Notes: a model not told the origin generated them from the sequence alone. A stretch of 64,000 nucleotides of DNA from an uncultured Gemmatimonadales bacterium (GCA_963740175.1 CAVUDL010000012.1:26434-90433); one strand, 5' to 3'. Shown: positions 27,407 through 44,867, counted from the stretch's first letter. Program-made: numbers and translations.

Positions 27407-28611
27407 GCCTGCTCCAGTATGTCGACCACCCGCTCCATCTCCTCCACCGTGTTGTACAGGTGCGGGCTGAGCCGGATGGCGCCCTCCCGCATGCTGCAGA
27501 TGACCCGAGCCGCCTTGAGCGCCGGAAGCGCTCCCCACATCCGCCGGCGCACGCAAAGGATGCCCGAGCCATTGCTCGCCCACCGGGGATACCACGCGCA
27601 CTCCCGCGCCGCGCCGCCCAGGCCAGCACCGGAGCATGCAGCGCCTGGAGGTGCTCGGCGATGCGCTGGATGCCGACTCGAGCAGCAGCCCGACCGATGC
27701 ATTCATCCCGGCAAAGTCCTGATACGGAAGGGTGATCAGCTCGAACCGCCGGGCGTCGCCCCGCAGGGTGTCGCGGTACTCGGTAAGCCGGGTGAAGTCG
27801 TCGGTGCCCTCGAACGCCATCCAGCCGGTGACCGACGGACTCAGCTCGCGGATCAGCTCCCGGCGGACGTACACGAAGCCGGAGCCCCAGGGCGAGAGCA
27901 GCCACTTCTGGCCGCCGCACGCCAGGACGTCGACCGGGGTTTTTCTGAGGTCGACCGGCAGCTGCCCCACGCCCTGGATGGCGTCCACGACGAGGTAGGT
28001 GCCGGCCGCCCGGGTGGCGGCGGAGAGCCGAGCGAGGTCGACCGTGTAGCCGTTGCTGAACTGCACCAGTGAGACCGCGAGTACCCGGACCCGCGGATCG
28101 CCGAGCCGCTCCAGCAGCCGGGCCTCGTCGGGCCACCCTTCGCGGTGGTGGGCGCCAGCTCGAGCGTGATGCCGCTGTCCTTGAGCAGCAGCCAGGGATA
28201 GACATTGGCCGGAAACTCCCGGTCGCTCGCGAGCACGATGTCGCCCGGCTGGAGCGGAAGCGCGCGGGCCGCGAGGCTCAGTCCGAATCCGGTGTTGATG
28301 GTGAGGGCGATCTCCTCCGGCGTCGCGCCGATCAGCTCGGCGGCCAGCCGGCGGGACTCGGCCATGGTGGCGAAGAGCTCGCGGTCGGGCAGCTGGAAGG
28401 GGGCGGCGCGCTTGCGGTTGAACTCGTCGAGCACCAGCCGGGTTCGCTCCGGCAGCGGGCCGACGCTGGCGTTGTTCAGGTAGGTGGTGTCGGCGGTCCA
28501 GGGGAACTCCGCGCGGCGGAGTCTCCGAGGTCGTACGGCGGTGAGCGGTGAGAAGTGAGAGGTGAGAGGGTACCCGCCTCCCCCCTCCCTTCTTCTGACC
28601 GCCCTTCTCAC
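27403..28611 (-). pseudogene. Class V aminotransferase-fold PLP enzyme (cysteine desulfurase/SufS-like), frame broken at least 3 times; start uncertain
   Basis: TTYLNNASVGPLP, PLP-lysine context ACGGQKWLLSPWGSGFVYVR and C-terminus IRLSPHLYNTVEEMERVVDILEQA. Its stop overlaps the next ATG (ATGA at 27403-27406). Confidence 0.7.
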
Positions 28612-28646
28612 TTCTCACCTCTCACCTCTCACTCACCTCTCACTTC
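28540..28646. repeat. Heptad-built palindromic intergenic element, copy 1
   Basis: The left arm is GGTGAGC GGTGAGA AGTGAGA GGTGAGA GGG. After a 31-nt loop, the right arm is CCC TTCTCAC TTCTCAC CTCTCAC CTCTCAC.... Hand pairing gives a stem of about 30 bp with 1 bulge and 2 mismatches. Confidence 0.85.
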
Positions 28647-29478
28647 GCAGCTTGGGATCGTACGCCTCGCGCAGCGCGTCGCCCACGAGGTTGAAGCCGA
28701 GCACGGCGGCCCCGATGGCGAGGCCGGGCGCGAACGAGATCCAGGGCGCCACGCGGAGCAGGTCCCGGCCGTCGGCCACCATCGCGCCCCAGCTGGGGGT
28801 GGGCGGCTGCGCGCCCAGGCCCACGAACGAGAGCGCGGCTTCGGCCATGATCGCGCCGGCGATGCCGAGCGTGGCGGCGATGATCACCTGGGTCCGCACG
28901 TTGGGCAGCAGGTGTCGCAGGAGGACCCGGCGGTCGCGCGCCCCGAGGGCCCGGGCGGCCAGCACGAACTCGGAGTGCCGGAGCACCAGCACCTGGCTCC
29001 GGACCAGCCGGGCCATGCCGGCCCAGCCGACCACCCCGATGACGACGAAGACGACCGGCAGCGAGGGCTTGACCGCGGCGGCCACCGCGATGAGCAGGAG
29101 GAGCGTGGGGAATGCGAGGGTGATGTCGGCCAGACGCATCACCAGGGCGTCGACCCAACGGCCGTAGTAGCCGGCCAGCAGGCCCAGGAGCACGCCAAGC
29201 GTCACCGAGACCGACTGGGAGATGATGCCGACCGAGAGCGAGAGGCGGGCCCCGTAGAGCACCCGGCTGAGGACGTCGCGGCCCTGGGTATCGGTCCCCA
29301 GCAGGAACCGCGAGCCCGGCTCGACCAGGTAGGCATTCCTGAGGTCCCCCGTGATCGGGTTGTGGGGGGCCAGCCAGGGCGCGAACACGGCCGCAAGCAC
29401 CACTACCGCGACGAAGAACAGGCCCAGCTGAAAGAACCGGTCGCGCCGCAGCCGCTCCCGCAGCACCCCCTCTGGCAT
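28633..29478 (-). CDS. ABC transporter permease, DppC/OppC type
   Basis: Intact 281 aa with six hydrophobic segments and EAA-loop AEAALSFVGLGAQPPTPSWG. Its last codons (KLRSER*) run into the repeat arm. Confidence 0.85.
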   Translation of the reverse strand: MPEGVLRERLRRDRFFQLGLFFVAVVVLAAVFAPWLAPHNPITGDLRNAYLVEPGSRFLLGTDTQGRDVLSRVLYGARLSLSVGIISQSVSVTLGVLLGLLAGYYGRWVDALVMRLADITLAFPTLLLLIAVAAAVKPSLPVVFVVIGVVGWAGMARLVRSQVLVLRHSEFVLAARALGARDRRVLLRHLLPNVRTQVIIAATLGIAGAIMAEAALSFVGLGAQPPTPSWGAMVADGRDLLRVAPWISFAPGLAIGAAVLGFNLVGDALREAYDPKLRSER

Positions 29479-29571
29479 CCTGTCCCGTGACGTGGGTTAC
29501 TCCGTCGGGGTGAGCCGGCACAACCCGTCGACATCCGCTCTCACCGCGCGGAGCGCACGATTCTTGCACTT

Positions 29572-30674
29572 TTGTTCCGGCGGAACGTCCACTGCAACCT
29601 TTGGCAGGGCCGCTTGATACCGGATAGCCCCTTTACCCTGGTCCTCAGCGGCGGCGGCTTGAAAGGGCTGGCCCACATCGGCGTGCTCCGGGCCCTGGAA
29701 GAGCGGGGCCTGGTGCCGAACCTGGTGGTGGGCTCCAGCATCGGATCGCTCATCGGCGCCGCCTGGGCCGCCGGGGTCCCGGCCAGAAGATGGAGGCGCG
29801 GGCCCGACTGGTCCGCCGCCGGGACGTCTTCCAGGTGGCCCGGGCGGACGTCGCGTTCCGCCGGCTGCTTGCCCCCGCCCTCTATCGCCGCGAACCGCTC
29901 GAAGCCCTCATCGCCAGCCTCGTCGGAGACGTCACCTTCGGCGATCTCCAGCGCCGGCTCCTCATCAATACCGTCGATCTTCACTCCGGCATGCAGGTCA
30001 TGTGGGGGCTCCCCGGTCTCCGCAACGCGCGGGTGGCCGACGCGGTGGCGGCCTCGTGTGCCCTGCCCGGCATCTTCCCGCCGCGGGAGATCGACGGCCG
30101 CGCGTACGTCGACGGCGCGGTCGTCGAGAACCTGCCGGTGCGCATGGCGGCCTCGCTGGGCCAGGGGCCGATCCTCGCGATCAACGTCGCCGCCACCAGC
30201 GTCCGCCGCTCGGCACTCGAGACTCAGGGCTTTGCGGCCACCTACATCCGGGGGCTCGAGATCGTGATGCAGACCCAGATCGAGACTCAGCTGCGGGACT
30301 GGAAGGGGCCGCCTCTGGTGCTGGTGCAGCCCAGGGTCGAGCACATCTCGATGTTCGCCTTCGACAAGACCGAGGAGCTGATCGAGGCCGGCTATCGCGC
30401 CACGGCGAACACGCTCGACCAGCTGGGCACCCAGCTCGGCGGCATCGCGCAAGGCATGCACCCGACTCGCCGGCTCCGGGTGCTGGTCGACGAGGATCGC
30501 TGCGTCGGCTGCGGCTCCTGCGTGGTTCAGGCCCCCCAGGTATTCCGGCTGGATGCCCGGGGCAAGGCCGAGGTGATGACCCCGGTCCAGAGCTGGTCTC
30601 CCATCGATGGCGCCTACGTCCTCAATTGTCCCACCTACGCGATCAGCGTGCGTCCGGAAGACTCTGCGGCCTGA
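29572..30674 (+). pseudogene. Patatin-like phospholipase fused to a C-terminal single-cluster 4Fe-4S ferredoxin domain; one frameshift near 29790
   Basis: Patatin oxyanion box SGGGLKG, nucleophile elbow GSSIGS and catalytic Asp in YVDGAVVENLP. The C-terminus reads VLVDEDRCVGCGSCVVQAP...NCPTYAISV (CxxCxxC...CP). The start is uncertain. Confidence 0.75.
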
Positions 30675-31326
30675 CCTCGAAGATGAACACCGCCGCGCCG
30701 TCCTGTCGAAAGGGCAGCAGGTTGCGAAGCGGCGTGCGGTAGTAGCGCCGGATCCGGACGGCACCCCAGGGCGAGAGTGCGCGCTCGAGGCTGGTCACGT
30801 CGTACTCCCGCTTGTGGTCGGGGTCCCAGAAGTCCTTCCCACCGGCGTAGTCCCCACCAGCACCCCGCCCGGAGCCAGGAACTCCACCAGCTCCCCCACG
30901 AACGCAGCGTCGTCCCGGACGTGCTCCAGCACTTCGTTGCAGTACACCAGATCGAACTGGCCTGGCCCCGGCGGCACGGTAGTGAAGGCCGGATGGGCGC
31001 GGCACCACGGAACTTCTCGGCCTGGCTGATGGCGGCGCGGGAGATGTCGTACCCCACCGCTCCGCCGCCGAGTTGCTGGAGCCGCAGAGTGAAGATGCCA
31101 TCCATGCACCCGAAATCCAGAACCTTTTGCGGTCGGGCGGAAACCGGCGCAGCAGCACGCGCTGGCGCCAGAGCAGATGTCGCATGCGCCAGTCGAGATC
31201 GAGCGCGCGCGGGCCCTGCCTGTCGAGCCATGCGCGATACTGCCGGTCGTAGTCCGCGCTGGGGGAGGCGGGTGAATGTTCGCGCTCATCGACCTCCGCA
31301 CTCCCAGCTCGTGACCGATCCGGCAA
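30643..31326 (-). pseudogene. Class I SAM-dependent methyltransferase, frame broken at least 3 times
   Basis: Three frames carry KVLDFGCMDGIFTLRLQQLGGGAVGYDIS (motif I), FDLVYCNEVLEHVRDDAAFVGELVEFLAPGGVLV and KDFWDPDHKREYDV. The start is ATG 31326 or ATG about 31293. Confidence 0.6.
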
Positions 31327-32463
31327 GCTCGGTGGCTACCCGCTCCCAATTGTAGTAGGTCTCGACCGCGCGGCGGCCCTCGGCGCCCAGCCGCCGAGCC
31401 AGCTCGCGATCCTGTAACAGCTGCCGCACCGCGCCGATAGCAGCCTCGGGCCTCTCGGCATCCACCAGCAGCCCGGTCTCGCCATCCCGGACCGCGTCCG
31501 GAATACCGCCGCCCGACCCGGCAACCACCGGGATCCCTGAAGCCGAGGCTTCGCTGAGGGAGATCCCGAAGCCTTCGACCATCAGGCCCGCGGCCGGAGA
31601 GGCCCAGGTAAATCTCGGCGGTGTTATAGAGCGCGGGCAAATCGGAATCAGGAACGTTGGTCAGAAATCGGACCCGGTCGGCCACGCCGAGATCCCGCGC
31701 CAGACCCTCGAGCTGGCCCCGCCGGTCGCCCGACCCGACACGGATAGCGCAGGTCGGGATACTCGTTGGCCAGCGCGGCAAGAACGTGAAATACCGTGTC
31801 GATGCCCTTGTGCGCCACCAGGCGGGCAACGGTCAGCAGCCAGCGGCCTTCCTCCAGGCCATAGCGGGCCCGAACGGACGTCGGGTCGATCCCCGGGCGA
31901 AAGTGCTCGGGATCGGTCCCCAACGGGAGAAGGCGCACATCGATGTCGTCCGGTCGAAAGCCCAGCTCTTTCAGCACGATGCGGCCAGATCCCTGGTCCA
32001 GCGGCTGATGGCTACCACCACCGAGGCTGACCGATGATGGCCCGGGCGGCCGCGCTTGATAGCGGAATGGCGAATCCGGTGTTGCAGCAGCAGGAGATCG
32101 GTACCATAAAGAAAGATTCCGTAGGGGTTCCCAAGCGCTTCCGGATCCAGCGAGCAGGATATCCTGCCGGCTTGAAGTTGCCGCACCAGACGAACTCCGG
32201 CACGAATTCACGGGCCAGAGCGCTGGCCCGACGAGACCATGGGAGCAGCCCCTGAACCGTGCGAAGCCGCCGGCTGGGAACCTTGAGCCGGTCGACCCGG
32301 TTTGGCAATCCAGCATCCACTTCAGCGCTCCCGGGCTGCTGTCCGGTCGAGACCACGAGCGTCCCCGGCGGATAACGCTGGCCAGCTCGCCCATCATGCG
32401 GGCGATGCCGCCGCCCATGGGAGGAAAATCGAACGTCAGCAGCATCTGGGTTGCGGATCGCAT
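31286..32463 (-). pseudogene. Glycosyltransferase family 4, frame broken at least 4 times
   Basis: N-terminus MLLTFDFPPMGGGIARMM, middle LLTVARLVAHKGIDTV and E-x7-E region MVEGFGISLSEASASGIPVVAGSGGGIPDAV are distributed over three frames. Confidence 0.7.
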
Positions 32464-32527
32464 GACCGACAAAGTAGTGGAGTCACTATCTTTCCGCCTC
32501 AACCGCAGACGGAAGCAAAGCCCCATT

Positions 32528-33516
32528 ATGCACACCCTGACTCCCGACCCTCGAGGCAATTCTGCGCGTCGTCGTGATCGGAGCTGGACGCAGGCACAAG
32601 AACGAGGCTGCAATCGCGCGGGCGGTGCGGTCACTGGGCCATCCCTGCCGGCTGGTCAATGCGGTGACATGGACCCAGAACCTGGGCCGGCTCGCAGCAC
32701 CCCTCCTGAGCGGCAGGTACGATCATTCGAGCCGGATACCGTGATTCTCGCGCGGCACGCCACGCTGCTCGGTGAACAGCGACTCAAGCGGCTGCTGCGC
32801 GGCCGCTACTCGGCGTTCTGGTATTTCGATCTTCGGGTGCCGCCGATCCCTGACGTGGTCAAACTTGGCCGCATGGTCGACGCCATGTTCGTCACCTACC
32901 TCCCGACGGTAGAGACATACCGCGCGCTCGGGGTGTCGAACGTCTTCCACCTGCCCCAGGGTATGGATCCGGAGCTGGACCAGCCCGCCCGCTCGGTTCC
33001 GGACAGTATCGGTGCGAGGTGGCCTTCATCGGAGGCAATTCGCCCCACCGCAACACGGTCTTGCGCGATGGCCCATTACGATCTGCAGATTCGTGGCCCC
33101 GGCTGGCGCAAGGCACCGCCGGACCTGCCCATAGCGGTGGGCCGATCTACGGGAAGCCTACGCGCAGGCGGTCGGTGGGGCGGCGATCTCGCTCGGCGCG
33201 CATTCGTTGCCTGAGATGGCGTCGCAGACCGCCTCGGCGTCGAACCGCATGTGGAAGGTGATGGGCTGCGGCGGGTTCTATCTCGGCGAATGGGTGGAGG
33301 GCATCGATGCTCGGCCGGGACGGAGTGCACTGTGCCTGGTACCGCAACCTCGGACACGGCATCGAGCAGGTCCGGCACTATCTGGATCGGCCCGAGGAGC
33401 GGACCCGGATTGCGGAGGCCGGGCGGCGCCACGCCCTGGAGCACCACACCTATGCCCACCGGGTCCGTCTTCTGCTCGAAGGGCGGGGGTACACCCTGCC
33501 TCAGACGATCGTGTAG
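32528..33516 (+). pseudogene. CgeB-family / DUF3880-type glycosyltransferase-like protein, frame broken at least 4 times
   Basis: Fragments in different frames: LRVVVIGAGRRHKNEAAIARAVRSLGH, VAFIGGNSPHRNTVL, SNRMWKVMGCGGFYLGEW and RTRIAEAGRRHALEHHTYAHRVRLLLE. The family call is from memory. Confidence 0.5.
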
Positions 33517-34362
33517 TTCCGGAACTCGAAGACCCTCGCGCCGGTCAGCCGTTCGATAGCGGTGGAGATGTAGTAGCGGAGAAACCGCCAGCGGAATCTT
33601 CGCGGTCCGATGACCCGGTCGGGATCGAAGCTGCGGGTGTCGATCCAGCGGCGGGCCACCTCAGGGTGAGTTCCCTTGAACCGCTTCAACCCGGCATCCA
33701 GGCCAGCAGTGGCAGGCTCTCGTTGGCGTCGCGCCAGGGATACATGGTGCGGCCGAGGTCGCGCTTCTCCCGCAGAGCCTGCGCCGGTCGGGCCCAGCCG
33801 TAGTGGAACATCTCGGCGCTGGTCAGCCGGGCCCGGATCTTTCGATGCTCGGGGCCGACCCGAAACCCCTGAGCGCCCTGATAAGGCCGGATGTCCAGCT
33901 CCGGCGCCAGCCGCACCGCTCGCACCTCGCGGCGGTACCAGCGCCGGTGCGTGGCGACCGTGTCGAAGCCTCCGTAGAAGTGGATGTACCGGACCAGCAG
34001 GCCCTCGATCCGCGCGTCTCCGTCCCACTCTGGATCGCGGCCGCCAGCTCTTCCGCACCGCTCTCGTGCAGCACTTCATCGGCCTGGATGTACACGCCCC
34101 ATGGATGGGCGCAGGCCCGCATGGCCCGATGGGTCTCGAGCCCGAGCACGGTGTTTCGCCGCGTCATGTCCCATTCGGTCTCCAGGATCCTGATCTTGGG
34201 ATCTCCGATCGAGCGAACCAGCGCGAGGGTGTCGTCCTCCGAGCGGCCCACATTGACCACCACTTCATCGCAGATCGGCAGGATGGACCGGATGCTCGCC
34301 TCGACCGGGAAGTCGAGCTTGATGGCGTTGCGGACGATAGTGAAGCCCGAGACCTTTACCAC
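33501..34362 (-). pseudogene. Glycosyltransferase family 2-like, frame broken at least 2 times
   Basis: VKVSGFTIVRNAIKLDFPVEASIRSILPICDEVVVNVGRSEDDT..., then IHFYGGFDTV..RRWYRREVRAVR and FKGTHPEVARRWID in other frames. GTG start at 34362. Confidence 0.6.
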
Positions 34363-35460
34363 GGAGCCGCTCCGAGAAGGCCGGTTCTGGCTGGGGGAAG
34401 CTGGTCAGAACGGCCTCGTACAGCCGGGCGGTGCGCTCCACGGTGTGCTCCAGCGAGAAGGTCACTCGGGCGGTGTGCCTTCCGGCCGCGGCGAGACGGC
34501 TGGCGAGCTCCGGCTCCGCCAACAGCTCGTCGATGGCAGCTGCCCAAGCCTGTGGCCAGTGGCGCACCAATCGCCCATCCACCCCGTCAGTGATCAGATC
34601 GAGGTTGCCGGTCGCGGCAGAAGCGATGACCGGCTTCCCCAGCGCCATTGCCTCGAGCAGAGCCTGCGACAGTCCCTCCGACCGGGATGGCAGCAGTACC
34701 AGCTCCAGCAGCTCGTAGAGTGGACGAACATCGGGAGTGAACGGCAGGCAGACCACCGCGTGTGGTGCCGTCGCGCTCGGCGACTCGGCCAGCGCTGTTG
34801 GGATCCACCCCGGCCAGTACCAGTCGCACCGGGGTACGCACGCATCCAGGGCGCGCAGCACCACGTGCTGATCCTTCGGCCGGGCCACCACGCCGATGGT
34901 GCGCCGCGGGGCTCCCAGCCGATTCGCCTGCTCCACTCCTGCTCCCCAGGGTCAGCCGGTCGATTCGCTCGGTAACCACTCCGTTAGGTATCACCGTCAG
35001 CTTCCTTCGCGGGGTTCCCCGGCGAACCAACGCCTCACCAACGGCCCGGCTGACCGCGACCACCTGGGCCGCGGCCACGCCGACCAGCCAGTTCTCCAGG
35101 ATGAAGGTGCGTGGCATCTGGCGTCGGGTTGCACCAACGGGGCGCGCAAGCGACCAGTCAGGGCCAGCCAGGTCAGCGCTTCACGGTCTCGCGCGCTCTG
35201 GGAGTTGATCAGGTCGACAGGATGCCGGTCAGAACCTCCGCCAGCGCGGCCGCATTGCCGCGACGGCGATGGGGCAGCAGGGCGAGCGGATGCACCTCGA
35301 GACCGCCGGCCGTGCGAGCGACTCGACCTCGGACTCGGGGGGGCAGACAAATCGCACGTGCATCCCCGCCGAGCCAGCCGAGGCTGAGGTGCAGGGTGGA
35401 TGTGACTGAACCCGCGCCACCGCCCTGATGAAGCACCTGCAGCACGGTGGGCGCACTCAT
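34356..35460 (-). pseudogene. Glycosyltransferase family 4, frame broken at least 3 times
   Basis: N-terminus MSAPTVLQVLHQGGGAGSVTSTLHLSLGL, middle KLTVIPNGVV and C-terminal LLPSRSEGLSQALLEAMALGKPVIASAATG lie in different frames. Its ATG overlaps the upstream stop (ATGA at 35457-35460). Confidence 0.65.
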
Positions 35461-36265: not shown

Positions 36266-38091
36266 CGCTCGGCCCCGAGGGCGGTCTCCTCCCCCCGGAA
36301 CTGGAGATCGTAGAGCCGGCGGTAGAGACCGCCGGCGCGAAGCAGCTCCTCGTGGCTGCCGCGCTGCACCACGCGCGCCCGCATCCAGCACCACGATCTC
36401 GTCGGCATCGCGCACCGTCGCCAGGCGGTGGGCGATCACCAGCACGGTGCGCTCCTGCATCAGCCGCTCGATGGCCTGCTGCACCAGCCGCTCCGATTCG
36501 GTGTCCAGCGCGCTGGTGGCCTCGTCCAGAATCAGGATCGGCGGATCGCGCAGCAGCGCCCGAGCGATGGCGATCCGCTGGCGCTGGCCGCCCGAGAGCC
36601 GGGTGCCCCGCTCGCCCAGCATGGTGTCGTAGCCCTGGGGCAGCTCCGCGATGAACGCGGCCGCGTTCGCCGCCTGGGCCGCCGCCTCGATCTGCTCCGG
36701 TGTGGCGCCGGGCGAGCCGTAGGCGATGTTCGCGCGCACCGTGTCGTTGAGCAGCACCGTATCCTGGCTCACGACGCCCATCAGCGCCCGCAGCGAGCGC
36801 CGGCCGATGCCGGGTGAGCGGCACTCCGTCCATCAGAATCTGGCCGATGGTGGGATCGTGGAACCGGGGAACCAGATCGGCCAGCGTCGTCTTCCCCGCC
36901 CCGGAGGGCCCGACCAGCGCGACGACCTTCCCTTTGGCAAGGTGAACGAGACGTCGCGCAGCACCAGATCGCCGTCGCCATAGCGGAAGGAGACCCGGTC
37001 GAACACAATCTCGCGCTCGAACCTGGCGAGCGATCGCCCGGGCCGATCGATCTCGGTGGCCGGCTGGTCGAGAAAATCGAAGACCCGCTCGGCGCTGGCC
37101 AGGGTCACCGCCATCACGGCCGGAAACGAGGCGATGGTCTTGAGCGGCGAGGTGAGCTTCAGCGCCGCCATGAGGAAGACGATGATGGCCTCGGGTGCGA
37201 GCGGAGCGGCCAGGCCCACCAGCCCGGGCTTCGTGCCGGCCCAGATAATCAGGATCACGAGGAACCCGGAGAACACCTCGGTCACCGGACTGGTCAGGGA
37301 GGAAAATCGCTGGGTGCGGATCACCCGCTTTCGGTAGCGTTCCGCCTGAGCCCTGAAGTGGGCCGTCTCGCGGGCCTCCTCCCCGTACGACCGGATCAGC
37401 CGGATGGCGCCGAGCCGCTCCGCCACGGTGGCCGTGATCTCTCCCCGTTCGTGGGCCCGGGCGCGCGCATGGGCCCGCAGCCGCCGCAGGAGGACTGAAG
37501 GCCCAGCACCAGAAAGGGAACGAACGCCAGGGTGAGCAGGGTGAGCCGCAGCGAGATCTGGCTCAGGATGAACAGCGTCACCGCGACCACGACGAGATTC
37601 TGGAAGAACGAGAGCAGCGAGGCCGTGATGACCGTCTTGGTCTGATCCACTTCGGTGATGATTCCCGAGATCAGCTGGCCGGCCCGGGTGCGCTGAAAGA
37701 AGCCGAGATCCAGGGTGAGCAGGTGGCCGAACAGCCGGGTGCGAAGGTCGCGCACCAGCCCCTCCTGAGCCCGCACCGAGACTGGGTGGACGCATAGCTC
37801 ATGGCGTTCTTGAGCACGAGGCCGAGCACCAGAAGCACGACCAGGCGCGCGGCTGCCTGGCCCGGAGTGAGACCGGCCATCAGGGGCTCGACCAGCCGGT
37901 CGATCAGCGCCTCCAGCTGGGTGGAGCCGGCCCGCAGGCTTCCGGCGGTGCCGAAGAGATGTTTCAGCAGGGGGACCAGCAGCACCAGGGTAAAGCCGTC
38001 GAGCAGCGAGGCCAGCATGGTGGCGCCAGCCCGATCGCAGCAGGCCCCGGTAGGGGACGACGAGCCGCAGGAGCCTGAGCTCGGGGCGCAC
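36262..38091 (-). pseudogene. ABC exporter, fused permease/ATPase (MsbA-like), frame broken at least 5 times
   Basis: TMD segments (FFQRTRAGQLISGIITEVDQ), Walker [10 protein letters not shown] (read by hand), signature [14 protein letters not shown] and Walker [14 protein letters not shown] hand-verified shift near 36375 restores ...[26 protein letters not shown]...* ending at 36262. Confidence 0.8.
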
Positions 38092-38093
38092 CG

Positions 38094-39659
38094 TTAGCCG
38101 TGCCGCGGGGTGAGCAGCGCGATCGGCAGGAGCACCTCTTCGGGCGACACGCCGCCATGGAGGAACGCTCCTCGATAGCGGGCCTGGTACTCCCGCAGCT
38201 TGGTGGGGTAGACGAAGAAGCGGTCGCCGGTGGCGAGCAGGAGCCGGGTGCCCGGCGTCCGGGTGGGCAGGCCGAAGCTGGCCAGGTCATCCACCACCAG
38301 CGCCGAGTCGGGATCCTGGGCCCGCAGATCGTCGCCGAACTTGTAGCGCAGGTTCGAGGTGGTGTCGCGCTTGGCGAACACCGTCGCCGGGGTGTGGCAG
38401 TGGATCGAGCCGTGGTCAGTGGTAAGCAGGACCGGCACCCGCCGGCGCTCGGCCTCCCGCAGCGCGTCCCAGAGCGGCGAGCGCTCGAACCAGGTGCGGG
38501 TGAGGTTCCGAAGCGCGGGGGTGTCGCGGGCCACTTCGAAGAGAGTCGAGTTCTCCGTGCGGCCGTGCGTGAGCTGGTCGATGAAGTTGAAGACCAGCGC
38601 GGTGACGCCGTCCTGGGCCAGGTGCGCCGGCAACCGCTTGAGCAGGCCCTCGCCGTCCGCTGCGGTGAACACCTTCTCGTAATGGACCGGCACCTGGCGG
38701 CCGGTGAGCTCGCGCATGTGCTCGGTCAGCAGCTCGGCCTCATGGGCGTTGAGGCTCGCATCCTCGTTGTCGTGCCACCACTTGGGATAGCGCGCCTTGA
38801 TCTCGGCGGGAAAGAGCCCGCTGAAGATGGCGTTCCGGGCGAACGGCGTGGCCGTGGGCAGGATCGAGAAGTAGTGCGCCGTCTCGATGTCGAACCGGGC
38901 GCTGATCAGCGGGCGGATCATGGCCCACTGATCCAGCCGGAGGCAGTCCACCACGACCAGCATCGCCCGCCCGTGCATGTCGAGCACGGGCCGCAGGAAC
39001 TCCGCGCCGATATCCACCGAGAGCGGCGGCCGGTCGGTGTCGCCCTCGTGCAGCCAGCTGGCGTAGTTCCGCTGCAGATAGCGGGCAAAGTCCTGCCGCA
39101 TGCTGTCCTGCAGCGTGCGCAGCGCGTCCTGCAGTCCGGGCTCATCCGCCTGGCCCAGCCGCACCTCCCACTCGGCCAGCTCGACGACCACTTCGACCCA
39201 CTCGCGCCAGGCCAGCGGACTTCCCCGCCGCGCCTCGAGCTCGCGGAAGCGGGTGGCGAAGTCTCGCGAGAGCCGCTGCTGCCGGATCCGGTCGCCCTCG
39301 AGCAGCCGGGTGACGACCGAGAGGATCTGCCGCGGGTTGACCGGCTTGATGAGGTAATCGGAGATCTCGGCGCCGATGGCGTCCTTCAGCGTCTCGGGCT
39401 CCTCGCTCTTCGTCACCATGACCACCGGCATCCCGTGGTCGATGGCGCGGATGGCCTGAAAGAGTTCCAGTCCGCGCCGGCCGGGCATCTGCTCGTCGAG
39501 CAGGACGACGCCATAGGGCTGGCGCTGGAGCAGGACCAGGGCGTCGTCGCCATGGGTGGTGGTCTCGACGGCAAAGCCCTGCTCCTCGAGGAACAGGATG
39601 TGAGACGTGAGGCTCTCGACCTCATCATCCACCCACAGAATGCTTTTGGGCCGGGGCAT
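38094..39659 (-). CDS. PorX-like response regulator with C-terminal PglZ / alkaline-phosphatase-superfamily domain
   Basis: Intact. REC domain ILWVDDEVESLTSHILFLEEQGFAVE...VVLLDEQMPG...IKP, then a PglZ-like region (VVVDCLRLDQW, LPTATPFARNAIFSG, FNFIDQLTHG, LLTTDHGS). Only 2 nt separate its TAA from the GTG of the ABC exporter. Confidence 0.8.
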   Translation of the reverse strand: MPRPKSILWVDDEVESLTSHILFLEEQGFAVETTTHGDDALVLLQRQPYGVVLLDEQMPGRRGLELFQAIRAIDHGMPVVMVTKSEEPETLKDAIGAEISDYLIKPVNPRQILSVVTRLLEGDRIRQQRLSRDFATRFRELEARRGSPLAWREWVEVVVELAEWEVRLGQADEPGLQDALRTLQDSMRQDFARYLQRNYASWLHEGDTDRPPLSVDIGAEFLRPVLDMHGRAMLVVVDCLRLDQWAMIRPLISARFDIETAHYFSILPTATPFARNAIFSGLFPAEIKARYPKWWHDNEDASLNAHEAELLTEHMRELTGRQVPVHYEKVFTAADGEGLLKRLPAHLAQDGVTALVFNFIDQLTHGRTENSTLFEVARDTPALRNLTRTWFERSPLWDALREAERRRVPVLLTTDHGSIHCHTPATVFAKRDTTSNLRYKFGDDLRAQDPDSALVVDDLASFGLPTRTPGTRLLLATGDRFFVYPTKLREYQARYRGAFLHGGVSPEEVLLPIALLTPRHG

Positions 39660-39675
39660 GCCTAAACCTAACCGG

Positions 39676-39772
39676 CGTGAGCGGTGAGCGGTAAGCAGTG
39701 AGCGGGCTACAGCGATCCCTGAGAGCGCCACTACAACTTTCCCTCTCACCGCTTACCGCTTACCGCTTACGC
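39676..39772. repeat. Heptad-built palindromic intergenic element, copy 2
   Basis: CGTGAGC GGTGAGC GGTAAGC AGTGAGC GGG, a 35-nt loop, then CCC TCTCACC GCTTACC GCTTACC GCTTACG. It lies in the divergent region between the PorX-like gene and GT9. Confidence 0.85.
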
Positions 39773-39787
39773 TGGTACTTTCTCCCC

Positions 39788-40850
39788 GTGCCCCACGCCT
39801 CCACCTCTCCGAACATCCTGGCGGTTCGTTTCAGCTCTATCGGGGACATCCTCCTCACCACGCCGCTCCTGCGAGCGATCCGGCGCACCCATCCGGGCGC
39901 CCGCGTCACGGTGCTCACCAAGCGGGAGTACGTCCCGCTGCTGAGCCACAACCCGCATGTGCATCGCGTGCTCGGCTTGGCGCCGGGCCGCTCGCTGTTC
40001 AGCCTGGCCGCCGAGCTCAGGGGGGACCGATACACCCACCTGCTGGATCTCCACGACAACCTGCGAAGCCGGGCGTTGCGAATCCTGGTGCCAGGCCATT
40101 GGCGGTCCTATCCCAAGCACCGGCTGGCCCGCGCCTGGCTGATTCGGGCCAAGCGAAATCGATATCGCGACCGGCGGCCGGTAGCGGAGCGGTACTTTCC
40201 GCCGCCCGCGATCTGGCGTGAAACCCGACGGCGGCCCGCCGGAGTTCTTTCTGGGGCCGGGAGGCGGACGAGCAGGTAGGGGCGTGGCTGACATCGGTGG
40301 GCTTCGAGCACGAGCTCGACATCGTGGCGGTGGCGCCCGGGGCGGCGCATGCGACCAAGCGCTGGCCGCTGGAACACTGGCGCAGCGCTGGTGGACCGTG
40401 CCGTCATGGATGGCTGGCCGTGGTCAGTCGTGGGCGGCCCCGACGATGCCGACCTTGGCGCTTCCCTCGCTGCGGGCAGCAGCGGCCGGGTGGCCAACGC
40501 TGCGGGAAGTTTCGGGCTGCAGGCCACCGGAGCCCTGCTCCGGCGAGCCCGCGCACTCGTCTCGGGTGACACCGGTGTCATGCACATGGCCACTGGAGTC
40601 GGGACGCCGGTGGTGGCGCTGTTCGGCCCTACGGTCGAGGCATTTGGTTTTTTCCCCTACACCGCCAAGGCACGGTGGTGGAGCTGCCGCTCCCATGCCG
40701 GCCTTGCACCGCGCAGGGAAGCGCCCGCTGTCCCGCTGGGCCACCACCGCTGCATGATCGATATCCAGCCCGGCGTTGTATACGAGGCGCTGCGGAGCCG
40801 GTTGCGCGTGACCGGCTGGGATCCGGCGGCGAGCGCGCTGCTGGCTCTGC
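39788..40850 (+). pseudogene. Glycosyltransferase family 9 (heptosyltransferase-like), frame broken at least 4 times; 3' end uncertain
   Basis: ILAVRFSSIGDILLTTPLLRAIRRTHPGARVTVLT, VAPGAAHATKRWPLEHW, LVSGDTGVMHMATGVGTPVVALFGPT and PCRPC..GHHRCMIDIQP alternate between frames. Confidence 0.7.
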
Positions 40851-40905
40851 TGTCCCAGGTGGGCCGGGGCCCAAGCGCGGGGGGATCTTTGCCCTCTGGC
40901 TCACG

Positions 40906-41196
40906 GTGCGGGTCGCTCAGGATCTCCTGCTGGATCCGCCACCGGCCGAGCGGGCGCAGCGCCGCCGGGTACAGGCGCTGGAACAGCGGTTGTCGAGCCT
41001 CACCATGCCGCCGCCACTGAGGCGCGCGTTCGGCGCGGCGGTGCAGCAGCTGCGCGATGCCCGGCCGGACACCGCGGCCCAGGTGCTGAGCCAGCTGGTG
41101 GCGCCGGCGCGGGAGACCGGGGGGCCGGAAGCGGGTGAAGCCGTGGCGCTGGCGGCGCGGCAGGCGCGGGAAGCCGGCAGGCGGGTAAGCGGGTAA
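40906..41196 (+). CDS. Hypothetical small protein, or an out-of-frame tail of the GT9 gene
   Basis: This is only the open frame VRVAQDLLLDPPPAERAQRRRVQALEQRL...; I recognised no motif. Its stop TAA lies inside repeat copy 3. Confidence 0.2.
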   Translation: MRVAQDLLLDPPPAERAQRRRVQALEQRLSSLTMPPPLRRAFGAAVQQLRDARPDTAAQVLSQLVAPARETGGPEAGEAVALAARQAREAGRRVSG

Positions 41197-41262
41197 GCGA
41201 GCCGGGCATCGTAGGCATAGCTGGGACGCGGCCTCGCCTACCCGCCTGCCCCGCTACCCGCC
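41176..41262. repeat. Heptad/octad-built palindromic intergenic element, copy 3
   Basis: GGCAGGC GGGTAAGC GGGTAAGC GAG, a 32-nt loop, then CTCGCCTACCC GCCTGCCC CGCTACCC GCC. Hand pairing gives about 27 positions with 4 mismatches. Confidence 0.8.
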
Positions 41263-41273
41263 TATACTCCGCC

Positions 41274-42149
41274 ATGCCACGCCTTACCAAGAAGACCCAC
41301 CACGCTTCCGCTTCAGTGCTGGAGAAGTTGGTCGCGGGGATCGACGAGCGCATCGGTGGGGCAGCCCCGGCGGACACCGTCCCGACCGGGTTCGCCTCGC
41401 TCGATCGGCTCCTGGCAGGTGGACCGCGGCGGCGGGACCTGGTGGTGCTGGCGGGAGACGTTGGCAGCGGCAAGTCCGCACTGGCCCTGGGCATTGCCAT
41501 CCGGGCGGCGGCGGCCGGGTCCCCTACCATGTACTTCTCGGGCGAGATGGGTCCGGAGCGCGTCATGGAGCGCGCACTCGCGTTGGAGGCGAAGGTGTCG
41601 GTCGACGATCTTCGTCAGGGCCAGCTCGACGACGTCAGCCGAGCCGCGGTGGGCGCGGCCGCGGTCCGGCTGCGAGATGCCCCGCTGCTGGTGAAGCCGC
41701 TCCTCGGGACCGACTTCGCGGAAGTGAGCGAGGCGCTCGACATCGTGCCCCGACGCCAGCTCCTGGTGGTGGACTCACTGCAACTCACAACTCCTCCGCG
41801 GGCCGCCGCGCGTCTTGAGGAGCGAGTGGCTCAGGCGGTCCGCGCCCTCAAAGCCCTGGCGGTCGCCCGAGACCTCGTCGTGCTGGTCACCGCCCAGCTG
41901 CCGCAGCTGCGCGCGACCCGACCCGATCCCCGTCCGACCCTGGACGATCTCGGCGGGTTGGGCGCGATCAAACAGAACGCTGATGTGATTCTGATGGTCT
42001 ATCGGGAGGAGATGTATCGGCCCGCGCAGGGCGTGGAGGGCGCCACCGAACTGATCCTGGCGAAGAATCGCAACGGTCCCACCGGTTTCGTGGACCTGTA
42101 CTTCTATCCTCGCTGGCTCCGCTTTGTGGACATGCTGGATGCGGATTAG
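41274..42149 (+). CDS. DnaB-helicase C-terminal-domain-only (RecA-fold) ATPase
   Basis: TGFASLDRLLAGG, Walker A GDVGSGKS, Walker B LLVVDSLQL and DnaB-like tail ADVILMVYREEMY...ELILAKNRNGPTGFVDLYF. At 291 aa it has no N-terminal primase-interaction domain. Confidence 0.7.
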   Translation: MPRLTKKTHHASASVLEKLVAGIDERIGGAAPADTVPTGFASLDRLLAGGPRRRDLVVLAGDVGSGKSALALGIAIRAAAAGSPTMYFSGEMGPERVMERALALEAKVSVDDLRQGQLDDVSRAAVGAAAVRLRDAPLLVKPLLGTDFAEVSEALDIVPRRQLLVVDSLQLTTPPRAAARLEERVAQAVRALKALAVARDLVVLVTAQLPQLRATRPDPRPTLDDLGGLGAIKQNADVILMVYREEMYRPAQGVEGATELILAKNRNGPTGFVDLYFYPRWLRFVDMLDAD

Positions 42150-42161
42150 GAGCGAATCCTC

Positions 42162-42602
42162 CTAGCTGCCGGCCGCCTTCGGCTCCGCGGCTGCGGCCTT
42201 CGCCGAATCTGCTCTCACAACCGCTCCCGCCAGCTGCACCATGGTTCCGGCGCTGTCGGTGGTCGGCCACACACTGACCCAGAGGGGCGGGCCGTCCTGC
42301 TCGGCATACAGCACGATCGTCCCGTCCGGCTTCTTCATATCGCTTACCAGCCGCCACTTTCCTTGACTCAGCACGCCCCGATAGTACTCGACCACCCTGG
42401 CGCGCCTGAGTGGGGGTGTACAAGGTGACCTGAAGCGCATCTTCGCTGCCGGCGCGCGAGACGAATTTGGCGTCCGGGAGGCATGGGAAGATTCGGAAAG
42501 ACGCTGAAAGCGTCGGGCGGCTTGGGCGGCGGAGCAGAATCCGAGCCGCAGGCGGCAACCAGGACGCAAACCAGCACCGAGAAGATGTCTGAGAGAAGGC
42601 AT
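42162..42602 (-). pseudogene. Small lipoprotein, frame apparently broken about 3 times
   Basis: The signal/lipobox segment SVLVCVLVAACGSDS, DAKFVSRAGSEDALQVTLYTPTQAR and VVEYYRGVLSQGKWRLVSDMKKPDGTIVLYAEQDG lie in three different frames downstream of ATG 42602. Confidence 0.45.
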
Positions 42603-42716
42603 AGGGGGTGAGCTTAGCGGACCCGTCGCGTTGCCGCAAGCGGGTGCGGCCCTTATGTTTCCGCATGCCGCAGCGATCTTCCCACAATCATCCAGGCCCC
42701 CCGCGTCAGAAGGAGT

Positions 42717-43472
42717 TTGGCTATGGCCGGCCATAGCAAATGGAAGCAGATCAAGCGCAAGAAGGCGATCACCGACGCCAAACGCGCTTCGTCCTGGACC
42801 AAGGTCATTCGGGAGATCACGGTCGCGGCCCGGGCCGGAGGCGGCGATCCGGCCGGCAACCCGCGACTTCGTACCGCCATCGATGCGGCCAAGGCGGTCA
42901 ACATGCCGGGCGAGAACATCGATCGCGGAATCAAGAAGGGGACCGGCGAGCTCGAGGGCAGCGTATACGAGGAGCTCACCTACGAAGGCTACGGGCCGGG
43001 CGGCGCCGCGATCTTCATCGAGGCCACCACCGACAATGCCAACCGGACGGTGGCTGAAATCCGGCATGCGTTCAGCCGTAACGGCGGCAACCTGGGGGCG
43101 ACCAACTCCGTGGCCTGGATGTTCGATCGCAAGGGACAGATCTATATCGCAACCTCCCGGCACGACGAGGACACCGCACTGGAAGCCGCGCTCGACAGTG
43201 GGGCCGAGGACTTTGCCCGCGAGGGCGATCAGTATGTCGTCACCACCACTCCGTCGATGTTCCACGCGGTGCAGGACTCGCTTCGCGGCAAGGGGTTCGA
43301 GATCGACTCGGCCGAGCTCGCCATGGTGCCGCGCAACACCGTCCGGGTCGAGGGCGCTGATGCCGAGCGCATCGTGCGGCTCATGGACGTACTGGAAGAG
43401 CTCGACGACGTCTCCAAGGTCTTCTCCAACTTTGATATCGACGCAGCCCAGCTGGCCGAGGCGGAAACCTGA
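42717..43472 (+). CDS. yebC: YebC/PmpR-family transcriptional regulator
   Basis: MAGHSKWKQIKRKKAITDAKRA... is the canonical family N-terminus. Intact 251 aa. Confidence 0.9.
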   Translation: MAMAGHSKWKQIKRKKAITDAKRASSWTKVIREITVAARAGGGDPAGNPRLRTAIDAAKAVNMPGENIDRGIKKGTGELEGSVYEELTYEGYGPGGAAIFIEATTDNANRTVAEIRHAFSRNGGNLGATNSVAWMFDRKGQIYIATSRHDEDTALEAALDSGAEDFAREGDQYVVTTTPSMFHAVQDSLRGKGFEIDSAELAMVPRNTVRVEGADAERIVRLMDVLEELDDVSKVFSNFDIDAAQLAEAET

Positions 43473-43482
43473 GGCCAGGCCA

Positions 43483-43995
43483 TTGAAGGTGCTTGGCATC
43501 GACCCCGGCACCGCCATCATGGGCTATGGAGTCGTGGAGGGCGTGCCCGGCCGAGCGTCGCGGCTGCTCGAATGCGGGACCCTCACCACCGGCGCCCGCG
43601 ATCCCCTGCCCGCACGTCTTCGCATCCTGTACGATGGGGTCGCCGCCCTGATCGCACGTCACACCCCTGACGCGGTCGCGGTCGAGAGTGCCTTCTACGG
43701 CAAGAACGTCCGCACCGCGGTAGTGCTGAGTCACGCCCGCGGAGTGATCCTCCTGGCCGCGGAGATGGCCGATGTCGATATCGCCGAGTACTCCCCCGCG
43801 CTGATCAAGAAGACCATCGTGGGTCGCGGGGCAGCGCTGAAGCCGCAGGTCGGATACATGGTCGCCCAGCTGCTGCGGCTGAAGGCGGCGCCGGCCCCCG
43901 CCGATGCGGCCGATGGCGTCGCCGTCGCGCTTACGCACCTGATGACGGCACCGGGCCGGCTGCTTTTCGGCCGCCGTCCTGTCGGCATCCGATGA
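43483..43995 (+). CDS. ruvC: Crossover junction endodeoxyribonuclease RuvC
   Basis: (L)KVLGIDPGTAIMGYGVV, AVESAFYGKNVRTA and ADAADGVAVAL. In-frame TTG start at 43483; the rest of ORF 42631..43995 overlaps yebC and was discarded. Confidence 0.85.
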   Translation: MKVLGIDPGTAIMGYGVVEGVPGRASRLLECGTLTTGARDPLPARLRILYDGVAALIARHTPDAVAVESAFYGKNVRTAVVLSHARGVILLAAEMADVDIAEYSPALIKKTIVGRGAALKPQVGYMVAQLLRLKAAPAPADAADGVAVALTHLMTAPGRLLFGRRPVGIR

Positions 43996-44597
43996 TCGCT
44001 ACCCTGACCGGCGTGCTGGCCGAACGACATGGCGAGACGCTCGTGGTGCAAACCGATGGCGGCGTCGGGTATGCCGTCACCGTGCCGGTTGGGGTGGCGG
44101 TACGGCTCCCCGCGAGAGGGGCGCGGGTCAGCCTGTTCACCGAGCTGGTGGTAAAAGAAGACGGCTGGGCGCTGTACGGGTTCGATACCGGCATCGAGCG
44201 GCAGGTGTTCCAGCGTCTTCTCGGCGCCAGCGGTTTTGGTCCCAAGCTGGCGTTGTCGCTATTGTCCGCCCTGGGCCCGGAGCGGACCGTCCGCAGCATC
44301 CTCGCCCGCGATCTCGCCGCCCTGAGCTCCGTCAGCGGAATCGGCAGGAAGAAGGCTGAGCGGCTGGTGCTGGAGCTGCAGGATCGCTTCAGCGACTTGG
44401 TGGTAGAGCCCGCCATGCCGCGGGTAGCCGGCTCCGAGGACGCGGTGCAGGCGCTGATGGGCCTCGGTTACGCCGTGTCGGCCGCCGACGACGCCGTCCG
44501 TGCCGCGCTGGCAGCCGGTGCACCATCCGAAACACCTCAGTTGATTCGGCGCGCCCTCCAACAGCTCACCGCCACCCGCGGAGCCCCAGAAAGATGA
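43992..44597 (+). CDS. ruvA: Holliday junction branch migration protein RuvA
   Basis: MIATLTGVLAE..., HhH motifs LLGASGFGPKLALSLL and LSSVSGIGRKKAERLVLEL. ATGA overlap with ruvC. Confidence 0.9.
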   Translation: MIATLTGVLAERHGETLVVQTDGGVGYAVTVPVGVAVRLPARGARVSLFTELVVKEDGWALYGFDTGIERQVFQRLLGASGFGPKLALSLLSALGPERTVRSILARDLAALSSVSGIGRKKAERLVLELQDRFSDLVVEPAMPRVAGSEDAVQALMGLGYAVSAADDAVRAALAAGAPSETPQLIRRALQQLTATRGAPER

Positions 44598-44771
44598 CCG
44601 TACCGGCAACGACGGCCGAGTGGATTTGCACCCGATGCGGCGCCACCAACCGCAAGCTGGTGGCGCTTCGGACCAGCCGGATCAGGCGACCGATGCGTGA
44701 CCTGCCACGCCCGACATATCGTCGAGCCGGATATCCGGCCGGTACGGTGGAAAGCCAGGTTGGACAAGTGA
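44594..44771 (+). pseudogene. Small zinc-ribbon protein (2 x CxxC), one apparent frameshift
   Basis: The ATG overlaps the ruvA stop. Frame 1 gives EWICTRCGATNRKLVA. A +1 shift between about 44660 and 44700 gives ...CVTCHARHIVEPDIRPVRWKARLDK*, ending at TGA 44769-44771. Confidence 0.4.
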
Positions 44772-44860
44772 GCAGTGGGGGATGAGCAGTGAGAAGCAGC
44801 AAGTGAGGTGAGAAGGGAGGAACTCGAGCCCTCTCACTTCTCACCCCTCACCTCTTACCT
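44767..44860. repeat. Heptad-built palindromic intergenic element, copy 4 (imperfect)
   Basis: AGTGAGC AGTGGGG GATGAGC AGTGAGA ... AGTGAG GTGAGAA GGGAGG, a central CTCGAG-containing loop, then CCCTCTCAC TTCTCAC CCCTCAC CTCTTACC. It pairs with internal loops. Confidence 0.75.
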
Positions 44861-44867
44861 TCCAGCC

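Follow-up and report, generated by a model that had tools for sequence, protein, structure and literature searches.

The window analysed here, a chromosomal stretch of 64,000 nucleotides from an uncultured Gemmatimonadales bacterium (about 66-70% G+C), carries four long hairpins at gene borders. The hairpins represent an architecture, namely purine-rich units of 7-8 nt in tandem, a loop and the complementary pyrimidine-rich array, and not a dispersed sequence family; the four are not copies of one another. Such structures evolve fast and are seated at gene ends of many soil bacteria. They appear to originate in situ, change the unit of both arms jointly, keep the purine-rich arm first, abut stop codons and are tolerated within operons. 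With somewhat better than even confidence, we regard each element as a "palindromic microsatellite" that would arise and turn over in place, being born by slippage, kept matched by arm-to-arm correction and tolerated in the manner of repetitive extragenic palindromic (REP) sequences.

Four hairpins of one architecture

The original prediction, made from the sequence of the window, of four hairpins sharing one architecture proved right, since tandem arrays, inverted repeats and folds all confirm them. Their parts, together with a small zinc-ribbon open reading frame (ORF) that adjoins the fourth, are as follows, the arms being given as read on the plus strand.

28540-28569, plus strand: copy 1, 5' arm, purine heptad array GGTGAGC GGTGAGA AGTGAGA GGTGAGA GG
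28570-28603: copy 1, loop, C-rich and unlike the loops of the other copies
28604-28646: copy 1, pyrimidine heptad array CTTCTCAC TTCTCAC CTCTCAC CTCTCAC TCAC CTCTCAC TT
39671-39706: copy 2, purine arm GCGTGAGC GGTGAGC GGTAAGC AGTGAGC GGG
39707-39740: copy 2, loop of 34 nt
39741-39776: copy 2, pyrimidine arm CCCTCTCACC GCTTACC GCTTACC GCTTACGC TGGT
41176-41199: copy 3, purine arm of 8-nt units GGCAGGC GGGTAAGC GGGTAAGC G
41235-41263: copy 3, pyrimidine arm CGCCTACCCGCCTGCCCCGCTACCCGCCT
44766-44800: copy 4, outer purine arm, degenerate, AAGTGAGC AGTGGGGG ATGAGC AGTGAGA AGCAGC
44801-44820: copy 4, inner purine arm, intact, AAGTGAG GTGAGAA GGGAGG
44830-44861: copy 4, pyrimidine arm CCTCTCAC TTCTCAC CCCTCAC CTCTTAC CTT
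44594-44771, plus strand: zinc-ribbon ORF between ruvA and ruvB, its ATG overlapping the ruvA stop codon (ATGA)

Shuffled sequence would be expected to hold 0.00 runs of three consecutive GTRAG units at 7-nt spacing (GTRAGNNGTRAGNNGTRAG), whereas the window has 10, and no array of at least three units was found within the 64 kb beyond the four copies. By Tandem Repeats Finder (TRF), the arrays of copies 1, 2 and 4 have period 7 and 4.1-5.9 repeats, and copy 3 has period 8. Copy 1 (28540-28646) and copy 2 are rated strong. The best stem of copy 1 without gaps has 30 bp, 26 of them Watson-Crick pairs; its RNA fold reaches -51.9 kcal/mol on the plus strand and -58.3 on the minus strand (z about -4.4, and -4.5 for the plus strand), with TRF period 7 at 28540-28569 (4.3 copies) and 28606-28643. 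Copy 2 is the top-ranked inverted repeat of the whole window, with arms of 36 nt each that are 86% complementary in the inverted-repeat search, an RNA fold of -67.7 kcal/mol (z -9.5), a DNA fold at z -7.5 and period 7 at 39677-39705 and 39748-39770. Copy 3, rated moderate, has 8-nt units (GCGGGTAA) and only 2-3 of them; like copy 1, it figures in the inverted-repeat list as well, and it has a plus-strand RNA fold of -62.4 kcal/mol (z -3.8) and an array of period 8 at 41166-41199. Copy 4 is partly degenerate, its inner stem (about 44801-44820 with 44830-44849) being good, and it shows period 7 at 44830-44860; its plus-strand RNA fold of -48.4 kcal/mol has a z of only -2.4. DNA folding is significant for copies 1-3 and not for copy 4 (z -0.3). 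The GTRAG core of 5 nt is common to the four copies and nothing else is, the loops being unrelated. Neither the Rfam 15 covariance models at gathering score nor a tRNA scan gave any match in the whole window.

The contexts proposed earlier, a junction of minus-strand genes for copy 1, a divergent spacer for copy 2 and junctions of plus-strand genes for copies 3 and 4, hold for all four, with the correction that copy 4 adjoins the zinc-ribbon ORF and ruvB and not ruvA directly. Copy 1 overlaps an ABC permease gene (28633-29496, minus strand), taking in its last codons and TGA (complement of 28633-28635; ...DPKLRSER*), and is followed by a class-V aminotransferase gene, also on the minus strand. 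Copy 2 fills the spacer between two divergent starts: its purine arm lies 12 nt from the start codon of a PglZ-domain response regulator (complement of 39657-39659, minus strand), and its pyrimidine arm gives way to TACTTT (39776-39781) and a heptosyltransferase gene that starts with GTG (39788). The last purine unit of copy 3 holds the TAA stop of the heptosyltransferase ORF (41194-41196), and after the pyrimidine arm come TATACT (41263-41268) and, 11 nt past the arm, the ATG of a DnaB_C-domain gene (41274). In copy 4, the first unit contains the TGA stop (44769-44771) of the zinc-ribbon ORF, and its pyrimidine arm stops 6 nt short of the ruvB ATG (44868). The stop codons of three upstream genes (copies 1, 3 and 4) hence sit within the 5' arm, in line with the earlier remark that arms reach into ORF ends, and at two junctions of the window the hairpin has replaced an ancestral stop/start overlap.

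Both arms change together at fixed sites

Numbers preceded by L denote loci fetched from relatives or from other genomes and metagenomes. The RuvB of the window is 92% identical to soil metagenome-assembled genomes (MAGs) and the PglZ response regulator 98% identical to soil metagenome contigs, and the ABC permease shows an identity of 97%. Synteny around ruvB is conserved across Gemmatimonadales, and the sites of copies 2-4 can be followed directly. The comparison of orthologous intergenic regions, put forward as a check with the original prediction, revealed both presence/absence and unit-number variation. Unit number and unit sequence vary among close relatives, bearing out the suggestion of slippage-prone arrays; the units at the three sites are given below.

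Copy-2 site: GGTGAGC/GCTYACC in the window, GGTGAAC/GTTCACC in L001, GGTAAGGC/GCCTTACC in L003
Copy-3 site: GCGGGTAA in the window, AAGCGGGG/CCCCGCTT in L002
Copy-4 site: AGTGAGA in the window and L001, GGGAAGGA/GTCCTTCCC in L002, CACGAAGG/CCTTCGTG in L004 and L005

A metagenome scan yielded 77 orthologs of the copy-2 spacer, 23 of which carry strictly periodic hairpins; their units, 7, 8 or 9 nt long, are of at least 12 types. Throughout these 23, the consensus unit of the 5' arm is the reverse complement of the 3'-arm unit, or one transition off. Pairwise arm identities between orthologs were too register-dependent, and MAFFT on stem halves aligned by unit register was unusable for counting structure pairs; complementarity within and across loci was used instead. 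Arm complementarity was 0.89 within a locus vs 0.56 across loci in the best register (21 copy-2 orthologs), and the own partner arm was the best match in 19 of the 21. The loop of this site varies from almost none in L002 to 92-134 nt, with another palindrome inside, in L303 and L380.

Presence is equally variable at this site. L306 and L308 (97% PglZ identity) have a clean empty site (...AAACATACGCTGTACCTT...), and L376 (98% identity) has the pyrimidine arm only. Relatives beyond about 90% protein identity have short spacers with no such element, and all distant relatives are without a hairpin.

Probable growth from native sequence

The junction of copy 1 preserves what look like successive states. 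L236 (97% permease identity) has no hairpin; its permease ends with ...GAG AGG TGA (...GAGAGGTGAGCGG), and the GTG start of its aminotransferase overlaps the permease stop (AGGTGAGC). In L209 and in the window, precisely this stretch is expanded into GTGAGAG/GTGAGAA units, with a complementary array added downstream, so that the last codons of the permease itself make up the outermost pairs of the stem. L211, L212, L215 and L233 have purine arrays that lack a complementary arm, and L223 has eight purine units with barely two pyrimidine units. When filled and empty sites were compared (L001 vs L306; L209 vs L236), no clear target duplication was seen, native sequence lying within the stem. The pattern is as expected for in-situ growth, and is hard to square with the insertion of a pre-formed element.

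This bears directly on the possibility that the hairpins are non-autonomous mobile elements, either REP sequences or REPIN-like pairs of them mobilised by a REP-associated tyrosine transposase (RAYT), or MITEs (miniature inverted-repeat transposable elements), which insert at gene ends and diverge fast. They are indeed palindromic and intergenic, four copies with a GTRAG core lie within 16 kb, and presence varies among close relatives; moreover, a dispersed palindrome (GTCATCCTGAGSG...CGCTCAGGATGAC) lies at the same sites or in the hairpin loops, so that these spacers do take mobile palindromes. However, the four copies have no sequence in common past the 5-nt core, their feet show no GTAG or CGTC tetranucleotide or its complement, and no terminal inverted repeats or target duplications were found apart from the palindrome itself. 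Native coding sequence forms the outermost stem pairs, array-only intermediates exist, and the units vary by site and ortholog while the arms stay matched and the hairpin of the site stays. We thus consider mobility improbable and do not uphold the MITE-like element proposed in the original prediction, whose other remark, that these hairpins are unlike REP sequences and bacterial interspersed mosaic elements (BIMEs), agrees with the lack of a common sequence and of a GTAG/CGTC head.

The dispersed palindrome (GTCATCCTGAGSG...CGCTCAGGATGAC; ...GTCATCCTGAGSGnnGCG...GATCCTTCGCTnCGCTCAGGATGAC...) is a separate element, which in relatives sits within heptad-hairpin loops or at these junctions: L001 9900-9990, L002 9900-9960, L003 4690-4800, L210, L212 and L215 at about 3880-4000 (the copy-1 junction), L324, L334, L303 and L380. 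A search for GTCATCCTGAGSG in the window found none. It looks like a REP/MITE-type element targeting hairpin loops or gene ends.

Spread, period and handedness

An exact search of public genome contigs for the GTGAG-type pattern (three units, 5-35 nt, three complementary units) retrieved at least 120 genome stretches from many phyla. Among the matches listed are Gemmatimonadales, Pyrinomonadaceae (Acidobacteriota), Gemmataceae (Planctomycetota), Chloroflexia (Chloroflexota), all classes of Proteobacteria, Bacteroidota, Cyanobacteria and Synergistia; the isolates among them include Mesorhizobium, Phyllobacterium leguminum and Oceanisphaera litoralis. The mirror pattern, with the CTCAC array first, was found in only 8 stretches of the same collection, two of which are junctions of neighbouring purine-first hairpins and one of which has an NN centre. 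The mirror arrangement is at least 15-20 times rarer than the purine-first one in public genomes, and viral or proviral contigs (IMG/VR, L289-L300) gave 12 purine-first GTGAG-type hairpins vs 0 mirror ones. The earlier statement that the G-rich arm always comes first on the plus strand is automatically true, as it is of both strands of such a palindrome, yet the handedness itself is real because the mirror arrangement is a different sequence and far rarer.

The window and about 200 fetched loci were searched generically for stems with internally periodic arms and a length of at least 18 bp, which gave 136 periodic hairpins, of period 7 in 121 cases, period 8 in 9 and period 9 in 5. After exclusion of the hairpins used for fetching the loci, an unbiased set of 62 remained, with 35 purine-first, 3 pyrimidine-first and 24 compositionally balanced. 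Its units include ATTGCGG, AATGCGG, GACGATG, GTAAATC, AGTTCAA, GGGAAGGA, CACGAAGG and others, and outside the window each site has a different unit.

The 7-nt period and the near-absolute purine-first handedness, found across phyla whatever the unit, could also mark a dedicated process and not generic slippage, to which we assign only a small probability. One such process would be the healing of double-strand breaks, in which a short template is copied over and over onto both 3' ends before these are joined; a G-rich array, a loop and a C-rich array would automatically result. Another would be a general punctuation of gene ends, recognised in several soil phyla by an RNase or by the ribosome, with a private hairpin at nearly every cistron boundary, as in the Pyrinomonadaceae ribosomal-protein operon described below.

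Some arrays are more widely spaced or composite. In L035 (4505-5063), just upstream of ruvC, 468 nt separate (AGTGGGA)x6 from (CTCCCCA)x7; between them is a minus-strand ORF of 123 aa that belongs to the 23S rRNA intervening-sequence protein family (PF05635, E 1.7e-34), so that this heptad "hairpin" has a gene inside its loop. Complementary heptad arrays about 210 nt apart lie within a seemingly rsmB-like coding region in L026 (17189-17452) and L030 (17028-17289), where the units differ (GGGATGC in one genome, GGGGACG in the other) and pairing is retained. L063 (3170-3420) has a nested composite hairpin, with AAGCAGA/CTGCTTT outside and ACAGGAA/CCTGTTT inside and an RNA fold of -126 kcal/mol. 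In L007 (12601-13413 and 12715-12850), (GACGTGAG)x5 and (CTCACGTC)x4 are 737 nt apart, the second in frame within a tgt-like ORF, with a 21-nt tandem repeat, GTCATCCTGAGCGAAGCGTTC x6, between both arrays.

Soundness of the assembly

Assembly artefacts were named with the original prediction as what could undo it, and could take the form of fold-back chimeras or collapsed reads. The window does show apparent single-base indel errors, and one related contig end (L022 180-400) resembles a fold-back. Nonetheless, hairpins recur at these sites in numerous independent assemblies from different technologies and also occur in isolate genomes; the arms are imperfect, the loops are unique, and copy 2 is covered over its full length, with 11 mismatches, by an independent unitig from a soil metagenome. 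The chance of an artefact is thus practically negligible. In the soil read runs, 8-14% of words were common with the window, the matches otherwise being fragmentary and from related strains.

As regards the indels, the heptosyltransferase gene (39785-41196) runs through more than one frame and contains an in-frame stop at 40277-40279, and the aminotransferase N-terminus (about 28460-28480) seems short of one G (CGGAGTTC vs CGGGAGTTC-type orthologs). In almost every Gemmatimonadales locus, ruvA and ruvB are separated by the conserved zinc-ribbon ORF (TAEWxCxRCGxxNRKLV...DRCxxCxxxH...RPVRW; about 58 codons), which is frameshifted in the window (178 nt from ATG to stop, with a 1-nt shift near 44690-44700) and intact in the orthologs of L001-L033. 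Homopolymer indels of the kind usual in long-read assemblies are probably present in the window. In L022 180-400, near a contig end, an imperfect inverted copy of the permease coding sequence comes after the 3' end of that gene and its heptad hairpin; it may stem from a fold-back during assembly or represent a convergent paralog.

Tolerance within operons and a possible role in RNA

Hairpins begin 1-10 nt after ruvB in L021, L023 and L033. Furthermore, a Pyrinomonadaceae MAG contig (L096, 1470-7000) has eight heptad hairpins between the ribosomal-protein genes of its S10/spc cluster, at the junctions S3/L16, S17/L14, L5/S14/S8, S8/L6, L6/L18 and S5/L30/L15. Each has a private unit and lies 4-13 nt past the upstream stop and 10-24 nt before the next start; two hairpins built of the same units bracket the presumed S14 gene. 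Since these hairpins separate ribosomal-protein cistrons that must be co-expressed, and there is no U-tract, heptad hairpins are not efficient terminators. In the window, neither a U-tract nor a T-run follows either strand of the four hairpins, a terminator scan calls none, and one copy lies between divergent starts, all of which supports the view, already expressed in the original prediction, that they are not simple terminators.

A wider RNA role would see the hairpins as functional elements, such as factor-independent bidirectional terminators or attenuators, RNase III sites or 3'-end stabilisers, in which selection keeps the pairing. We hold this to be rather unlikely, though it has several observations on its side. 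The stems lie within a few nucleotides of the upstream stop (copies 1, 3 and 4; L021, L023 and L033; L096), and both arms change together. The pyrimidine-rich 3' arm would leave a weak RNA:DNA hybrid at hairpin closure, which, going by known hybrid stabilities, may favour pausing or release and would explain the handedness. Moreover, the arms in L035 flank the gene of a 23S rRNA intervening-sequence protein, and the stems of 23S rRNA intervening sequences are RNase III substrates. On the other side stand the absence of a U-tract, the hairpins between ribosomal-protein cistrons needing co-expression, the location of copy 2 upstream of both flanking genes and the fact that near-identical relatives live without the hairpin.

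The mismatches within the stems do not favour such a role either. In 24 hairpins whose flanking gene orientation is known by homology and was manually verified, sense-strand stems had 17 G.T-type vs 26 A.C-type mismatches, and the sense RNA was the more stable fold in 7 of the 24. G.U tolerance in these 24 hairpins thus gave no RNA-specific signature of selection, a result with which an RNA effect is still compatible. The matching of the arms may be maintained at the DNA level or simply reflect youth. A home-made gene caller (G+C at the third codon position and purine at position 1) applied to about 150 hairpins placed 71% of stops at -10 to +14 of the stem; its histogram and the wobble count are not relied on, because sense and antisense frames are confused in high-GC DNA and GTGAG arrays stop every frame. 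RNA runs for the Mesorhizobium locus L158 gave weak, unspecific matches only.

Start-codon boxes and binding sites

The start codons next to the hairpins have a TAYNTT-like box 5-7 nt before them (TACTTT, TATACT, TACCTT and TAGGTT; 39776-39790, 41263-41276, 44856-44870 and minus strand 39657-39675) and no Shine-Dalgarno sequence. The box is kept in orthologs without hairpins. Box and missing Shine-Dalgarno sequence suggest that transcripts in this lineage may be leaderless.

Such boxes call to mind a further explanation, in which the units are repeated sites for a DNA- or RNA-binding protein, or phased -35-like hexamers (TTTACC/TTCACC/CTTACC) for the promoters that follow. The box stands before the start codon after copies 2 (both sides), 3 and 4; L001 has TTTACC 17 nt upstream of TACCTT; and, owing to the handedness, the pyrimidine arm always faces the downstream gene. 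Yet the unit is not conserved between sites or relatives, and hence there is no single recognition sequence; a 7-nt period does not hold sites to one helix face; a consensus promoter scan found nothing at the hairpin positions; and the same architecture occurs inside operons. We consider this explanation very improbable.

A proposed palindromic microsatellite

Returning to the palindromic microsatellite, its life could run as follows. Replication slippage would expand a chance two-unit proto-repeat at a gene end. Stop codons (TGA/TAA) and Shine-Dalgarno-like runs would make gene ends purine-rich on the sense strand, GT[GA]AG being a stop flanked by G, and an inverted copy would be tolerable only downstream of the ORF, giving the purine-first order. 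The arms would then stay complementary via intrastrand template switching (quasi-palindrome correction), selection for pairing, or both. Slippage and intrastrand template switching of this kind are established in E. coli. Once transcribed, the element would form a 20-36 bp stem-loop in the operon mRNA, tolerated between cistrons and thus no efficient terminator. By analogy, its most likely effect would be REP-like, as a stable stem-loop straight after an ORF can protect or punctuate mRNA segments. Much of the persistence of the hairpins may be near-neutral mutational turnover.

Several points weigh against this account. Slippage and template switching are inferred for this organism, and so is the origin of the handedness. 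Units without likeness to a stop or Shine-Dalgarno sequence, such as AATGCGG and GGGATGC, are still mostly purine-first. The clade-wide persistence of a hairpin at one site and the complementarity of about 90% fit functional selection equally. Copy 2 sits between divergent starts and not at a gene end. Finally, the GTRAG core in all four copies hints at a genome-specific influence, for which a purely local model has no explanation unless TGA/TAA stops seed them.

Any explanation is constrained by a handedness of at least 15-20 to 1, joint unit turnover at fixed sites, birth from native sequence at a stop codon and tolerance within essential operons. In practice, such hairpins shift stop and start codons and break ancestral translational coupling; they burden annotation with spurious ORFs and with protein tails of low complexity, and are likely to cause trouble in assembly.

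Comparison with known systems

Eukaryotic foldback (FB) transposons have long inverted arms made of short tandem subrepeats. The likeness of the window copies to these, and to 23S rRNA intervening sequences, is architectural only, as they are without cargo or transposase. MITEs have terminal inverted repeats, target-site duplications and near-identical dispersed copies, whereas the window copies are dissimilar and show none of these. With REP, BIME and REPIN elements they have in common that they are intergenic imperfect palindromes, often right after stops and within operons, and REP stem-loops can stabilise upstream mRNA. However, REPs are dispersed copies of a conserved 20-40 bp sequence, associated with RAYTs and bearing a GTAG or CGTC head, the hallmark of the two REP superfamilies (PMC3733652); the window elements show heptad periodicity and evolve in place.

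Tandem heptamers are a known feature of other bacteria. The short tandemly repeated repetitive (STRR) arrays of cyanobacteria reportedly lengthen a helix of the RNase P RNA, a finding attributed to Vioque in 1997. According to PMC4679880, the STRR of heterocystous cyanobacteria and the TAACTGA arrays of Beggiatoaceae are intergenic tandem heptamers, often beside start or stop codons, and heptamers are summarised from Mrazek (2007) as the most over-represented long simple repeats in prokaryotes. Inverted pairs are rare, with 1 of 170 sets in Beggiatoa (PMC4679880) and "only a few" in Nostoc (PMC4692102). These are mostly single direct arrays with a genome-wide unit, unlike the paired arrays of the window, whose units and phylum are others. 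In the literature, we found this class described for Xanthomonas, cyanobacteria and Beggiatoa only, and no account of cross-phylum spread, handedness or joint arm turnover.

The closest precedent lies in Xanthomonas campestris and X. axonopodis, whose genomes have 183-186 GGGAATC arrays each, 70-75 of them as convergent inverted pairs (Rehm et al. 2015, PLoS One, PMC4692102). Those arrays lie between genes, at a mean distance of 28 nt to the upstream ORF and 160 nt to the following one, and occupy the same loci in two species with varying length and sequence; no function was found, and G-quadruplex formation, which their G-tracts undergo in vitro, was proposed (PMC4692102). The window shares with them the tandem heptamers (at least two units, typically about four, with period 8 in copy 3), the convergent pair with the G-rich array first, the intergenic location near the upstream ORF end (copies 1, 3 and 4, with copy 2 excepted between divergent genes), and a location conserved between relatives with variable length and sequence. 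By contrast, the Xanthomonas unit is GGGAATC, with at least 3 G in at least 4 units, while the window has GGTGAGN/GGTAAGC with G-runs of 2 and only three GGG runs in copy 3. The quadruplex explanation therefore cannot apply here, where GTGAG/GTAAG units lack G3 tracts; the only detailed study of inverted heptamer pairs invoked G-quadruplexes, and the same architecture is met here with no quadruplex potential. Xanthomonas has, in addition, one dominant unit genome-wide, and here, in a different phylum, each site has a private unit. Handedness, joint arm turnover and the proposed seeding from stop codons are not described for Xanthomonas (PMC4692102), and the handedness and the turnover at fixed sites provide sharp, testable regularities.

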